Shown here piece after piece: positions 54,021-59,690 of a DNA stretch of 59,753 bases. Below the pieces are notes generated by a model. It did not search any database and had not been told where the DNA came from. It was given only the letters and a program-made list of their open reading frames with translations. Made by a program: the position numbers and the translations under genes. The DNA is from a virus: the UHGV virus genome UHGV-0209512; one strand, written 5' to 3'. The stretch's first letter is position 1, and the number at the start of each line of letters is the position of its first letter.

Positions 54021-54247
54021 TAGCGATCCTCGATTGCTCTAATTGTGGTTAAGTCTAATTCGCAGGTTGGAGGATATCCATAAAGTCCCATTTGCTTTCC
54101 TTGTGCATTAAACCATGTGCCTGACGGATCCTGCCACTGCTTAGGTGTCTTGTGGAGAAATACTACTCTGTTTTCACCGTAATAATTAATTCTTACTCCT
54201 GTGTGAGTATATTTACGTTTACCTTTTGGTCTTCTTAAGTTAGCCAT
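54020..54247 (-). CDS. Hypothetical basic protein (75 aa)
   Basis: ORF with overlapping stop/start in operon. Confidence 0.4.
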   Translation of the reverse strand: MANLRRPKGKRKYTHTGVRINYYGENRVVFLHKTPKQWQDPSGTWFNAQGKQMGLYGYPPTCELDLTTIRAIEDR

Positions 54248-55167
54248 CAGAACAACTCCATTACACGATCACGGAATGTGCCGTCATGGGTAGCGTTAAT
54301 GTTTGCAGCAATCACACCATACGCCCATAAGTTGAAGGCAGCACGTGATTCATAGATTGTTGATAAACGTTCGTAAGTGAAACCGTTTTGCTCAAGGTAT
54401 TTAAGGACAGCGTCTTGTTCAATTTCAGTTAATGTTGAAACATGCTTACCAAAATGATGGCGGTCCGGTGACTTATCTGATACGCGCATTGGTCCCCACG
54501 GAGGGGTAACCACACTTCCAAACGCTGCCGCTTGAATCCAGGAGGATGAGTCGCAGCTATACCACGGATAACGCTCCATAATGGTTGTTGACGTAATACC
54601 AAACGCATGAAGTTTAATCTTAGCACGTCCGCTACCATCGCAAATATATTTGTCCCACATGCGGTCCAGCCAAGTTTTAAGCGTGTCCGTTGAACGCCCT
54701 ACCATGCCACCAATCGTGATATATTCGTAGTTCTTCATGTAATATTCAAGATAGCGGAAGTCCTCACCAAAGTGGAAGCACGGTAACGGTTTAGCACCGC
54801 GTGCTTCCATTTCAAGCTGATTACGGTATGTTTGCAGTGGATCACCAATACCATCAAGCACCGAGGCCATTACAGCACCATCTTCTACCCGCAGAATATC
54901 TTTATTGCGTTTGATGTACTCACAGTATTCAACAATATCAATGTGAGCACCTAACGAGTGCGCGGAGAATGCACCAGAGTCGAGAAACACTTTAGCCCCA
55001 TCCGCACGCATTTGATCAACATACTTCTGACGTCCAACGTAGTGGTATGATTCCAAAATATGGGGCAGATTGCGCGTGATATTTTTCTCATGCTCCGACA
55101 GTTTTTCATAACGCTGCTGTCCAGGCATATATCCGTTCGTGTAAACTGCTGCCATAAAAACGTTCAT
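54247..55167 (-). CDS. dpdA: DpdA-like DNA-guanine transglycosylase (TGT-fold) for 7-deazaguanine insertion into DNA
   Basis: 306 aa; TGT-like features by eye (LDSGAF, HAFG); linked to folE-queD-queC-queE in the same operon. Confidence 0.6.
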   Translation of the reverse strand: MNVFMAAVYTNGYMPGQQRYEKLSEHEKNITRNLPHILESYHYVGRQKYVDQMRADGAKVFLDSGAFSAHSLGAHIDIVEYCEYIKRNKDILRVEDGAVMASVLDGIGDPLQTYRNQLEMEARGAKPLPCFHFGEDFRYLEYYMKNYEYITIGGMVGRSTDTLKTWLDRMWDKYICDGSGRAKIKLHAFGITSTTIMERYPWYSCDSSSWIQAAAFGSVVTPPWGPMRVSDKSPDRHHFGKHVSTLTEIEQDAVLKYLEQNGFTYERLSTIYESRAAFNLWAYGVIAANINATHDGTFRDRVMELF

Positions 55168-55370
55168 TTTTGGAATGGCCCTCCAAACTGATCAATTAAT
55201 TCTAAAGTACGCCACGCTTCATTAAATGCTTCGTCCGCGCGATGTTTAGCGTCAATAAGCTGCTGCTTTAAAACATCTGTAGGCGCATCATTCTGTATTG
55301 CAGAACAAGCATCCCCAGTACCTGCTTTAAGCTGGTAGAATGCTGTCTCTAAGATTAGTTGTCTTGACAT
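55164..55370 (-). CDS. Hypothetical protein (68 aa)
   Basis: ORF 55164..55397 trimmed to ATG 55368-55370 after GGAGG (4-nt spacer); ATGA overlap with dpdA start. Confidence 0.4.
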   Translation of the reverse strand: MSRQLILETAFYQLKAGTGDACSAIQNDAPTDVLKQQLIDAKHRADEAFNEAWRTLELIDQFGGPFQK

Positions 55371-55390
55371 ATTTCCTCCAATGACTAAAA

Positions 55391-55422
55391 AGCCCATACC
55401 AGTATTATGACCGATATGGGCT
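55391..55422 (-). terminator. Stem-loop AGCCCATA...TATGGGCT downstream of folE (minus strand)
   Basis: 8-bp stem with 16-nt loop; on the minus strand followed by UUUUAGUC; possible partial terminator between folE and dpdA. Confidence 0.35.
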
Positions 55423-55441
55423 TGATCTGTAAAGCTATCTA

Positions 55442-57191: not shown

Positions 57192-57671
57192 TTACGCTCT
57201 CGCTGTACGTGAATGAACTTCGTAAACAACCCAAAGGATAGCGGACGCTGTGAACTTACTTAAGCTCATTGCCACCATAGATCCTGGATTAACAATACCT
57301 ATAATACTTAAGAACACAATGGAGTCAATCGGTACAGCTACTAAAGAGCTGATAAATACTCGTTGATGAAAAGGCTTCTTGGTGACCGTGTATACTACAT
57401 AATCAGCAAACTCACTAAGCGCAAAAGACGCAACGGATGCTACTACAACCGCAGGATCTCCGAACACCCAGCTAAGGACGCAACCAACAATCATTGCAGG
57501 GATGACGCCTTTGCCAGCGTTACGCTGTGCGTAATCACGCAAGACAAAGATAATGCCTACAAAGAAAGCCATCATTGGGACTACGCCGAGTGGCGTATTA
57601 AGCATTGGAAGGTAGGAAAAACCCAGGTTTACGAATGTAATTGCAGCCAGATAAGCAACAATAAATTTCAT
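57192..57671 (-). CDS. Polytopic membrane protein; candidate queuosine-precursor transporter
   Basis: ORF 57192..57761 trimmed to ATG 57669-57671 after GGAGAA; about five hydrophobic segments; transporter assignment is inferred from the neighbourhood only. Confidence 0.35.
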   Translation of the reverse strand: MKFIVAYLAAITFVNLGFSYLPMLNTPLGVVPMMAFFVGIIFVLRDYAQRNAGKGVIPAMIVGCVLSWVFGDPAVVVASVASFALSEFADYVVYTVTKKPFHQRVFISSLVAVPIDSIVFLSIIGIVNPGSMVAMSLSKFTASAILWVVYEVHSRTARA

Positions 57672-57791
57672 ACTTTTGTTCTCCAGTTTTAACAGCGTTA
57701 TTCGCTGGTTGTTGGGTTTAAAAGCTTTAGTAGTATAGTTGGGTTCCCGCACCCTAAACAATGCGCTAGCGGTGCGGTTTTCTCGGTAAGA

Positions 57792-58514
57792 TCAAACGTG
57801 TTTGCTGTAAGCTTTATCCATAAATTCGCTGTACCCTTTAGCACGCAGTTTACACGCCGGGCATTCCCCACAACCGTAACCCCAATCATGCAGAGTACGA
57901 CGGACGCCGTTATAGCAAGTATGCGACTGCTCAATTACTGTGGTTAAGAAACCGACCTTATCCGCCAGCTCAAACGTTTCTGCTTTATTTAAACGCATAA
58001 GCGGAGTGACAAAATGGATATCTGTTTCATATCCAACGTTTAACGTAGCTTCAAGCAGATCTACAAACTGCTGACGACAATCAGGATAACCGCTATAGTC
58101 CGTTTCACAAACGCCCGTAACCACATATCGGGCTCCAACCTTCTGCGCGTAAGCGTGCGCGGTAGTCAGGAAAAGGGCATTACGGTTTGGCACAAAGCTT
58201 GCCGGAAGGTTGTTGTGCTGTTCGTGATGTTCGTTAACATCACCTTCGTTCCCTATTAAAGCGCTATTACCAATCTGTTTCAAAGCAGGTAATTCGAAGA
58301 CAACAAACGGAACATCGTGCTCTTTACAAATTTGATTTGCACAAGCCAGCTCAATGTTATGACGTTGACCGTATGCAAAACCAATAGCGTAGACTTTATC
58401 GTAGTTATTCAGTGCAAGACCTAGACAAGTCACGCTGTCCTGGCCGCCAGACAGGACGACAACGGCGGAGTTATGATTTTTTACAGGGAATACCAGTTTA
58501 TCTAATTTATTCAT
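57792..58514 (-). CDS. queC: 7-cyano-7-deazaguanine synthase
   Basis: PP-loop SGGQDS near N-terminus and C-terminal Cys cluster CYNG ... CGECPAC; 240 aa, no fused amidotransferase domain. Confidence 0.85.
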   Translation of the reverse strand: MNKLDKLVFPVKNHNSAVVVLSGGQDSVTCLGLALNNYDKVYAIGFAYGQRHNIELACANQICKEHDVPFVVFELPALKQIGNSALIGNEGDVNEHHEQHNNLPASFVPNRNALFLTTAHAYAQKVGARYVVTGVCETDYSGYPDCRQQFVDLLEATLNVGYETDIHFVTPLMRLNKAETFELADKVGFLTTVIEQSHTCYNGVRRTLHDWGYGCGECPACKLRAKGYSEFMDKAYSKHV

Positions 58515-58778
58515 TTACTTCACCTCTTCATAAGTAATTTTAAAGATATCAGGTTTGCAAGGATAAATCTCACCTTTCACACCCTGAACAATATAATCAC
58601 CAACATTAGCAAGATGATCACCTTCTAGTGTTTTGATAGTAAAGCTACCATCTTTATTTTCAATAGCTGTGCCATTTAAACAAGCTTTACTAAACCATGT
58701 AGGCGTTGAACCAATTTCCATTGTTGTAGTTAGCAGGAATGCTTCAACTTCTACAGGCTTCTTTCTAAATTTAGCCAT
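58515..58778 (-). CDS. Hypothetical protein (87 aa) between queC and queE
   Basis: Intact ORF; no motif. Confidence 0.45.
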   Translation of the reverse strand: MAKFRKKPVEVEAFLLTTTMEIGSTPTWFSKACLNGTAIENKDGSFTIKTLEGDHLANVGDYIVQGVKGEIYPCKPDIFKITYEEVK

Positions 58779-58983
58779 TTACTTCACCTTTAATATCACA
58801 AGGGTTGATTGTTACGTTAGACATTACGATTGGATGATTGCGCGCTCCAATTGTACTAACGTGATTAATATCCAATTCTACATGCACGCCTTGCATAGTA
58901 GCGTGAGCAATTGAAGAATTAAGTTTTTCTACCAGCTCAGTGATCATTTCCTGATGCTGTTTTGCTTCTTCCAAAGTAATCAT
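58771..58983 (-). CDS. Hypothetical protein (70 aa) between queC and queE
   Basis: Intact ORF; no motif. Confidence 0.45.
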   Translation of the reverse strand: MITLEEAKQHQEMITELVEKLNSSIAHATMQGVHVELDINHVSTIGARNHPIVMSNVTINPCDIKGEVNG

Positions 58984-59690
58984 TATTCCACCCCGATATA
59001 TTTGTGGACCTGAAGCTGCAACGTGTACCCGTGTTTCATACAGCTTTGGACAACCGCTTGGATGTTACTGTGGTTAAGGTCTTCATCCTGCTCGTCCATT
59101 GGCTGTAAATATATCTTACCCTTGAACCCCTTCGGAGGTCTAGCGATAAATGGCGTAGCCTGATGATCTAATGCTTGAAGAGGTAAACCATCTTCCACGT
59201 TTACACAGCACGCTTTAAGCACATATTTAAATGCATTAGCGCGGTACAGCACAGAAGGATGAATTTTTGTAGTCTTGGGGCTACATACAATTACTGGTAT
59301 CTGGGAAAAGTTCTTAGGTAAAGGCATAGACCCATTCGTTTCAATCTGTACAAGATACCCGCGCGATAACAGTTGTTCGACAAACGGGTTAATTTGCTGG
59401 CGGAATGGTTCGCCCCCAGTAATAACCACAAGTGAGGTGCTATTACCTGACTCCAGTTTACGGCTTTCAATCAATCGCATAATATCCACAATGTGATAAA
59501 GAGAACGACCAACAGTATAATCGGTATCACAGCCAGGACATTGCAGATTACACCCAGCAAGACGCACAAATACAGCAGGTTGGCCGCAGAATGGACCTTC
59601 ACCCTGAATGGTAGAGAATACCGAATGCACGTCTAAATACATATCGTTTTCTTTAGAACGGGACTCGGGAGCTTGTTGATTAATATTCAT
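58983..59690 (-). CDS. queE: 7-carboxy-7-deazaguanine synthase (radical SAM)
   Basis: QGEGPFCGQP and radical-SAM CNLQCPGC (C-x3-C-x2-C); AGGA RBS 7 nt before ATG. Confidence 0.8.
   Translation of the reverse strand: MNINQQAPESRSKENDMYLDVHSVFSTIQGEGPFCGQPAVFVRLAGCNLQCPGCDTDYTVGRSLYHIVDIMRLIESRKLESGNSTSLVVITGGEPFRQQINPFVEQLLSRGYLVQIETNGSMPLPKNFSQIPVIVCSPKTTKIHPSVLYRANAFKYVLKACCVNVEDGLPLQALDHQATPFIARPPKGFKGKIYLQPMDEQDEDLNHSNIQAVVQSCMKHGYTLQLQVHKYIGVE

Follow-up and report, generated by a model that had tools for sequence, protein, structure and literature searches.

A probable CAjan-type preQ0 DNA-modification cluster in the genome of a Seuratvirus coliphage

The viral genome UHGV-0209512 was analysed as one window, the whole stretch of 59,753 nucleotides, and this report concerns a set of genes near its right end that encode enzymes for the synthesis of 7-cyano-7-deazaguanine (preQ0) and for its insertion into DNA. 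The interval 54247-59690 consists of eleven co-oriented open reading frames (ORFs), all on the minus strand, and the order of transcription is QueE, an ORF of 70 amino acids (aa), an 87-aa ORF, QueC, a YhhQ-like protein, an ORF of about 196 aa, QueD, FolE, a 68-77-aa ORF and DpdA. Downstream of DpdA on the same strand are a 75-aa ORF, a 78-aa ORF, the sliding clamp gene and the DNA polymerase gene. An initial annotation of this DNA had put the ends of the locus at 54247 and 59690, which are exact ORF boundaries, and had described its ORFs as co-oriented and leftward, with the DNA polymerase and clamp alongside; this is indeed so, and the latter two (PHROG 1252 and PHROG 947, respectively) lie directly downstream. 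The five pathway genes that it listed are present, but it omitted six further ORFs between QueE and DpdA, including the YhhQ-like membrane protein. The five pathway genes are as follows.

58983..59690, minus strand: QueE, 7-carboxy-7-deazaguanine synthase (radical SAM), 235 aa; CNLQCPGC at residue 47; PHROG 2076 at 2.8e-68
57792..58514, minus strand: QueC, preQ0 synthase, 240 aa; Pfam QueC at 8.6e-75 over residues 17-231
56070..56603, minus strand: QueD, 6-carboxytetrahydropterin synthase, 177 aa; Pfam PTPS at 1e-21, 77.6 bits (cut-off 22.4); HGHNY at residue 28
55442..56068, minus strand: FolE, GTP cyclohydrolase I, 208 aa; Pfam PF01227 at 7.2e-64, 215 bits (cut-off 27)
54247..55167, minus strand: DpdA (phage DpdA1 subfamily), DNA guanine transglycosylase inserting preQ0, 306 aa

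The cluster region has 90-94% DNA identity to 36 phage records, nearly all of them Escherichia phages of the genus Seuratvirus, including SeppeHuegi, the SLUR phages, Seurat and CAjan, and the annotations of these relatives carry the names DpdA, 'dPreQ0 synthase QueC', QueE, FolE, QueD and YhhQ. When the four synthesis enzymes were examined by profile searches, FolE and QueC passed the NCBIfam equivalog cut-offs, and their Pfam matches, like that of QueD, exceed chance by a wide margin. FolE scored 200.6 bits with TIGR00063 (cut-off 181.6), has CEHH at residue 98 and QVQERLT at residue 137, and is 98.6% identical to FolE of SeppeHuegi and 79.6% identical to that of CAjan. QueC scored 242.9 bits with TIGR00364 (cut-off 150.3), has the PP-loop SGGQDS at residue 22 and is 98.3% identical to CAjan QueC. 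It aligns only to positions 132-353 of 418 in PHROG 1550, the C-terminal part of a profile that also covers Gat-QueC fusions, and no Pfam match to a glutamine amidotransferase was found fused to it or in the neighbouring ORFs. QueC is thus of the stand-alone form. QueD passed with Pfam PTPS but was under the cut-off of the NCBIfam QueD model (TIGR03367, 62.5 bits against 89.25); it matches PHROG 2389, 'QueD-like', at 6.3e-54, and AGH and an upstream Cys can be read in its sequence. The PDB sequence search with QueD gave no match, and its allele is divergent, being 78.5% identical to that of CAjan and 73.5% to that of SeppeHuegi. The five best NCBIfam matches of QueE are all QueE models, although all are under the equivalog cut-offs (best 97.7 bits against 200). 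Its only three PDB sequence matches are full-length and are all 7-carboxy-7-deazaguanine synthases (4njg at 2.6e-19, 6nhl at 4.3e-18 and 5tgs at 4.5e-11), so that QueE combines the CX3CX2C motif with specific similarity to QueE over other radical SAM enzymes, and it is 98.3% identical to CAjan QueE. The motifs cited in the initial annotation for these four proteins (CEHH, QVQERLT, HGHNY, C-x3-C-x2-C and SGGQDS) are all where it had placed them.

DpdA is 100% identical in amino-acid sequence to DpdA of CAjan over 306 aa and it matches PHROG 887 at 8.2e-96. Several sequence comparisons count against its assignment. It has no Pfam match, that to the tRNA-guanine transglycosylase (TGT) family included, and Pfam TGT was absent from the scans of all 85 diverse family members. 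The NCBIfam DpdA model NF041059 gave 16.9 bits against a cut-off of 200, and when the profile of the diverse family was compared with the PDB the top match was a bacterial DNA-guanine transglycosylase, 7ui4, at an E-value of only 0.12. Neither the single protein, searched against the PDB by phmmer, nor a shallow profile gave any PDB match. The initial annotation had called the protein TGT-fold and DpdA-like and had made this call depend on matches to TGT or DpdA profiles; 54247..55167 fails these profiles at the curated thresholds and the call is right all the same, as the identity to CAjan DpdA, the predicted fold and the residues described below bear out.

An exhaustive profile search collected 6,483 DpdA relatives at E-values up to 0.001, and an AlphaFold2 model of DpdA was built on an alignment of 85 sequences with 29-65% identity. 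This model has a predicted local distance difference test score (pLDDT) of 97.1 and the (beta/alpha)8 barrel fold of the TGT superfamily, and the top 50 Foldseek matches were all tRNA-guanine transglycosylases. The solved structure nearest to it is that of a DNA preQ0 insertase and not of a tRNA enzyme; the next structural scores were 17.0 for QTRT2, 16.9 for bacterial TGT, 15.8 for arcTGT and 14.9 for Cap10, and generic TIM barrels scored 12 or less. A first AlphaFold2 model, built on 27 sequences with 68-75% identity, had a pLDDT of 61 and gave only non-significant Foldseek matches to generic TIM barrels, and it was discarded as uninformative. The mere exchange of the alignment with 68-75% identity for the one with 29-65% identity raised the pLDDT from 61 to 97.

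It has been proposed for CAjan DpdA that D206 is the nucleophile and that D63, S64, F67, D105, H132, G153, G154 and F189 act in catalysis or base binding (PMC7544227). All nine residues are present in the protein studied here. D206 is invariant in the 85 relatives, and at least 90% of these share D63, S64, D105, H132, G153, G154 and F189, a group to which F67 does not belong. The assignment as DpdA is therefore secure despite the failed profile thresholds, because it is carried by the identity to CAjan DpdA, the TGT-fold model and the catalytic and base-binding residues. The failed thresholds lower the case for membership of the tRNA TGT and bacterial DpdA families and not that for DpdA1, because the models were built for those families. 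By analogy with CAjan, this DpdA is expected to exchange guanine for preQ0 in DNA.

Whether the inserted base would be preQ0 or one of its derivatives depends on what else the genome encodes. Among the families listed for the other 82 ORFs, namely the best 25 of 35 Pfam families and the best 25 of 29 NCBIfam families, a depth that does not cover very weak matches, there was no QueF, glutamine amidotransferase, ArcS, methyltransferase or formyltransferase, and the ORFs that have no CAjan homologue, when scanned separately, gave no nitrile reductase or amidotransferase. The sole QueF signal was a weak cross-match, below cut-off, inside FolE. As the families listed for the rest of the genome include neither QueF nor an amidotransferase, ArcS or DpdB, one would expect preQ0 itself in the DNA, and a preQ0-type base is supported. 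The initial annotation had reasoned in the same way from the stand-alone QueC and the missing QueF-like reductase, and this reasoning holds for the 240-aa QueC and the remaining ORFs.

The corresponding system of CAjan (Seuratvirus cajan), whose cluster for preQ0 in DNA (dPreQ0) spans 28,621-34,560 (PMC7544227), has been described earlier (Hutinet et al. 2019, PMC6884629; Kot et al. 2020, PMC7544227). CAjan virion DNA contains 70,628 +/- 2,445 dPreQ0 per 10^6 nucleotides, which is about 32% of G, and less than 6 per 10^6 nucleotides of each of dADG, dG+, dPreQ1 and dQ, and deletion of dpdA leaves the DNA unmodified and cut by every enzyme tested (PMC6884629). It has also been shown that the folE, queC and dpdA deletions are unmodified while the yhhQ deletion is still modified, and nanopore mapping placed the modification in GA and GGC contexts (PMC7544227). 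HaeIII (GGCC) leaves CAjan DNA uncut; EcoRI and SwaI cut it. Insertion is now regarded as a post-replicative base exchange by DpdA (PMC10516641). In the present genome the GA and GGC sites account for 7,542 of the 26,603 guanines, that is 28.4% or 63,110 per 10^6 nucleotides, which is near the CAjan measurement. Taken together, the cluster is genuine and complete, it is very probably the DNA-hypermodification module for dPreQ0 that is known from CAjan, here in a Seuratvirus coliphage, and we infer that this genome is modified in the same way as that of CAjan. The route proposed in the initial annotation, in which FolE, QueD, QueE and QueC make preQ0 and DpdA inserts it into DNA, agrees with the CAjan experiments. 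Gene content, motifs, fold and protein identity come from the present analysis, and chemistry, sequence motifs, gene requirements and restriction protection are taken from published work on a phage with an identical DpdA. Against the above reading it must be said that this genome is known from its sequence alone, that the dPreQ0 chemistry expected of it is carried over from CAjan, and that a modification level equal to that of CAjan is an assumption given the divergent alleles and the accessory differences.

According to this reading, the phage FolE, QueD, QueE and QueC would convert GTP during infection via dihydroneopterin triphosphate (H2NTP), carboxytetrahydropterin (CPH4) and carboxydeazaguanine (CDG) to free preQ0. 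DpdA1, a compact TIM-barrel transglycosylase of the tRNA-guanine transglycosylase superfamily, would act on double-stranded phage DNA after replication and, chiefly where guanine stands in a GA or GGC context, replace that base by preQ0, probably with Asp206 as the nucleophile and Asp63 as the base. About 28-32% of G in this genome would be expected as dPreQ0, which would block many type II restriction enzymes. The YhhQ-like membrane protein may salvage preQ0 and would be dispensable.

Besides the pathway genes, the cluster and its downstream flank hold the following ORFs.

58771..58983, minus strand: 70-aa ORF, conserved in the cluster; PHROG 26258 at 1.1e-50; 97% identical to its CAjan counterpart; no Pfam match
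58515..58778, minus strand: 87-aa PGDYG-like ORF, peculiar to this genome's cluster; PHROG 419 at 5.6e-30; weak Pfam PGDYG match at E 0.049
57192..57671, minus strand: YhhQ-like membrane protein, putative preQ0 transporter, 159 aa from an internal ATG; 98-99% identical to the CAjan 'putative preQ0 transporter'
56600..57190, minus strand: ORF of about 196 aa; PHROG 23361 at 6.6e-101; longest reading 209 aa from TTG at 57229
55164..55397, minus strand: 68-77-aa ORF; PHROG 20065 at 2.3e-39 over residues 10-77; 92% identical to CAjan
54020..54247, minus strand: 75-aa ORF; 100% identical to CAjan; PHROG 38388 at 8.4e-58
53784..54020, minus strand: 78-aa ORF between the clamp gene and the cluster, next to the 75-aa ORF; no counterpart in CAjan or SeppeHuegi

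The YhhQ-like protein has several hydrophobic segments and matches Pfam Vut_1 at 25.6 bits (cut-off 27.2) and TIGR00697 at 20.9 bits (cut-off 50.95), each over part of the profile only; in CAjan the role of YhhQ is putative and it is dispensable for modification (PMC7544227). The 87-aa ORF lies between queC and queE, where CAjan and SeppeHuegi carry an unrelated 62-aa gene. Relatives of it turn up in 807 phage records from a wide range of hosts, the best being 72.6% identical in Klebsiella phage Kmi2C, and no Seuratvirus record is among the best 12 of the 807 matches. One PHROG that it matches weakly, 4159, is labelled nucleotide pyrophosphohydrolase. The 196-aa ORF, between queD and yhhQ, is conserved in Seuratviruses (95% identical to SeppeHuegi and 57% to CAjan) and the 60-100 aa at its C-terminus are also found in several unnamed PHROGs, among them one with the label ATPase, but it has no significant Pfam or PDB match; calpain matches of the 209-aa reading at E 0.5-1 were dismissed as chance. 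The 68-77-aa ORF probably starts at the ATG at 55370, which has GGAGG upstream, because the PHROG 20065 match begins at residue 10 of the 77-aa reading. The 75-aa ORF is the leftmost, and first, gene of the published 12-gene CAjan cluster. The 78-aa ORF, which has no PHROG or Pfam match, is found in GottfriedDienst, WildeMaa and phiG7 (95-96%) and in EP_H11 and IME392 (81-83%), phages with genomes of 111-116 kb. When the ORFs of this set that lack an assigned function were searched with Pfam at E-values up to 5 and with phmmer against the PDB, the only result was the weak PGDYG hint for the 87-aa ORF. It appears unlikely that any of the uncharacterised cluster ORFs (the conserved 196-, 75-, 77- and 70-aa ORFs or the 87-aa PGDYG-like one) has an accessory function in DNA deazaguanylation. 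If there were such a factor it might bring DpdA to the replisome, determine the preference for GA and GGC or control the supply of guanine or preQ0, and the accessory set of this genome could then give a modification level or pattern unlike that of CAjan.

These ORFs are also what an alternative to dPreQ0 would have to call on. The cluster could yield another deazaguanine (dADG, dG+, dPreQ1 or a new derivative) if preQ0 were further modified by the product of one of them, the candidates being the 87-aa PGDYG-like, 196-, 77-, 75-, 70- and 78-aa ORFs. In favour of this, no function has been assigned to five ORFs of the cluster and to two more on the way to the clamp gene, CAjan lacks the PGDYG-like ORF, its version of the 196-aa ORF shares just 57% identity with the one here, and several further deazaguanine derivatives and their enzymes have recently been found in other phages (PMC10516641). 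However, none of the candidates matches an amidotransferase, a nitrile reductase or hydratase, a methyltransferase or a formyltransferase, and most are too short for an enzyme. Moreover, only two of them lack a homologue in CAjan, whose DNA has dPreQ0 as its sole deazaguanine (PMC6884629), and PGDYG-like proteins occur in the 807 phage records from unrelated hosts, most of them not known to be deazaguanine-modified. We regard a different deazaguanine as very unlikely. There is also the question whether the enzymes act on DNA at all, as PHROG 887 and many GenBank records label the DpdA protein 'queuine/queuosine tRNA-ribosyltransferase' and its fold is that of the tRNA-guanine transglycosylases; it could then be a queuine or archaeosine tRNA-ribosyltransferase, and the pathway would boost queuosine-type tRNA modification during infection. 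This has already been refuted for the identical protein of CAjan, which is needed for dPreQ0 in DNA (PMC6884629). The same conclusion is reached from the nearest solved structure, a DNA preQ0 insertase, from the absence of a Pfam TGT match and from the protein itself, which with 306 aa has neither the C-terminal domains of arcTGT (577 aa) nor a CxCxxC..H zinc site, there being no Cys after residue 205. A role in tRNA modification therefore deserves next to no credence.

A cluster can be present and yet not be fully functional, and here a divergent QueD or FolE allele or rearranged accessory genes might lower or abolish modification. QueD shares just 73-79% identity with its counterparts in CAjan and SeppeHuegi and scores below the NCBIfam QueD cut-off, and in CAjan the host pathway does not make up for the loss of phage folE or queC (PMC7544227). 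But all the ORFs are intact, the catalytic motifs are kept and Shine-Dalgarno-like sequences precede most starts, FolE is nearly the same as that of the isolated phage SeppeHuegi (98.6% identity), and mosaic alleles are normal among these phages, so that a loss or reduction of function is extremely unlikely.

As to the expression of these genes, the initial annotation had described one leftward operon together with the DNA polymerase and the clamp. The features that bear on this are the following.

59712..59735, minus strand: terminator-like hairpin just upstream of queE; 9-bp stem with 6 GC pairs, then TTTTTCAC
52831..53784, minus strand: DNA polymerase processivity factor (sliding clamp), 317 aa; PHROG 947 at 5.6e-82; 99.7% identical to CAjan
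50713..52698, minus strand: DNA polymerase, 661 aa; PHROG 1252 at 3.3e-228; 99.5% identical to CAjan 'DNA polymerase B'
50683..50703, minus strand: terminator-like hairpin just downstream of the polymerase gene; 8-bp stem with 5 GC pairs, then TTTAATAT

The NCBIfam family-B polymerase matches of the DNA polymerase ORF are weak. One ORF in the genome-wide scan matched TIGR00663 dnaN at 1.3e-8, and this match, for which the output does not name the ORF, presumably belongs to the clamp ORF. In the stretch that begins with queE and ends with the polymerase gene, neighbouring genes touch or overlap apart from three gaps: 120 nt separate queC from yhhQ, 44-71 nt folE from the ORF after it, and 132 nt the clamp gene from the polymerase gene. 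A GAGGA ribosome-binding site can be read between the upstream hairpin and the queE ATG. The hairpin at 59712..59735 may mark the start of a transcription unit. A perfect TATAAT is present at 59736-59743 on the minus strand, within GTTATAAT, immediately upstream of this hairpin, and a -35 element for it, if any, would lie across the window junction. The promoter scan, on the other hand, found 22 promoters when 22.5 were expected in shuffled sequence, so that no promoter is claimed. Because the scan did no better than in shuffled sequence, the single operon is a matter of inference from gene packing and consensus hairpins. The co-orientation and tight packing described earlier stand, the single transcript is not seen in the sequence, and one transcription unit that takes in the cluster as well as the clamp and polymerase genes would fit the packing and the flanking hairpins and is plausible.

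The window corresponds to the whole 59.7-kb genome of a Seuratvirus (Queuovirinae), circularly permuted relative to the related records, because position 1 of the window comes directly after queE in the coordinates of the relatives. Past the window ends the leftward replication block goes on with the genes for helicase, exonuclease, recombinase, ligase, RNase H, dUTPase and primase. The rest of the genome matches the same phages at 92-95% identity over 82-94% of the query in the best database records, and over long stretches no record of the phage collection goes above about 95%. Between the clamp and polymerase genes there is a 136-bp insert (52699-52834) that is absent from CAjan and SeppeHuegi and that could encode a peptide of about 47 aa. 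Away from the cluster, a 326-aa DUF6453 protein (42366-43346, minus strand; Pfam 4e-122) without a CAjan homologue is encoded on the opposite strand amid the tail-fibre genes. Beside it is a 1105-aa tail fibre (43427-46744, plus strand) whose CAjan match covers just 39% of its length, and the host-recognition module has therefore been exchanged. A 2026 preprint reports that a new Seuratvirus, phiHS1, has the same cluster and an unusually long lateral tail fibre. Several small early-region ORFs of 54-99 aa at 14369-15317, 16062-16226 and 17941-18829 have no CAjan homologue, and the one at 14369-14668 has a weak AP2-domain match (E 2.5e-4) of the type seen in HNH/AP2 homing-endonuclease-like genes.

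The pathway class was correctly described at the outset as known from other phages. Work on CAjan in 2019-2020 had already established the system along with its chemistry, target motifs and gene requirements, and the key enzyme of CAjan is the same, residue for residue, as the one here. No new biology is added by this locus, and the loose ends are the small uncharacterised ORFs of the cluster. The expected dPreQ0 would account for resistance to many restriction enzymes, for nanopore reads of lower quality and for possible difficulties in cloning, which is relevant to the use and engineering of such phages. In addition, phage DpdA1 is not detected by the curated TGT and DpdA hidden Markov models, so that a pipeline whose annotations depend on the thresholds of Pfam or NCBIfam will miss it.

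When the cluster is compared with that of CAjan, the gene order and strand are the same, both clusters lie between the genes for polymerase and clamp and those for helicase and recombination, the 75-aa ORF is as fully conserved as DpdA, QueC, QueE and YhhQ are 98-99% identical, and both have a stand-alone QueC and no QueF or amidotransferase. The two clusters differ in FolE and QueD, which are about 79% identical, and in the 196-aa ORF. Moreover, a 107-aa gene of CAjan is absent here, the PGDYG-like ORF takes the place of the 62-aa gene, and there are an extra 78-aa ORF and the 136-bp segment, one on each side of the clamp gene. These differences weigh against a simple equation of the two systems, but they are ordinary phage mosaicism and nothing in them suggests a changed chemistry. 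Enterobacteria phage 9g (Nonagvirus, Queuovirinae) likewise has FolE, QueD, QueE and a DpdA1-type transglycosylase that inserts preQ0 (PMC10516641, PMC6884629), but its QueC is part of a Gat-QueC fusion and its DNA carries dG+ at about 25% of G, whereas QueC here stands alone. The bacterial DpdA (bDpdA) of Salmonella Montevideo (PDB 7UI4; PMC10164549) has just 16% sequence identity to the phage DpdA. It has 413 residues in the solved chain and a structural Zn site, CXCX2CX22H, needs the ATPase DpdB, and works within a restriction-modification system, where it modifies roughly one nucleotide in 10^3 (PMC10164549), as against about 30% of G for CAjan DpdA. The phage protein, being shorter and without the C-terminal cysteines, does not fall in the bacterial family, and no DpdB-like or ParB-like partner was found among the families listed for the other ORFs of this genome. 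It works like bDpdA but belongs to a separate phage DpdA1 subfamily. Finally, in Pseudomonas phage iggy, of the Queuovirinae lineage, DpdA also inserts dPreQ0 and protects against restriction, and it follows a strict GA motif and modifies about 16.5% of G (PMC10484667), whereas the CAjan-type DpdA targets both GA and GGC.

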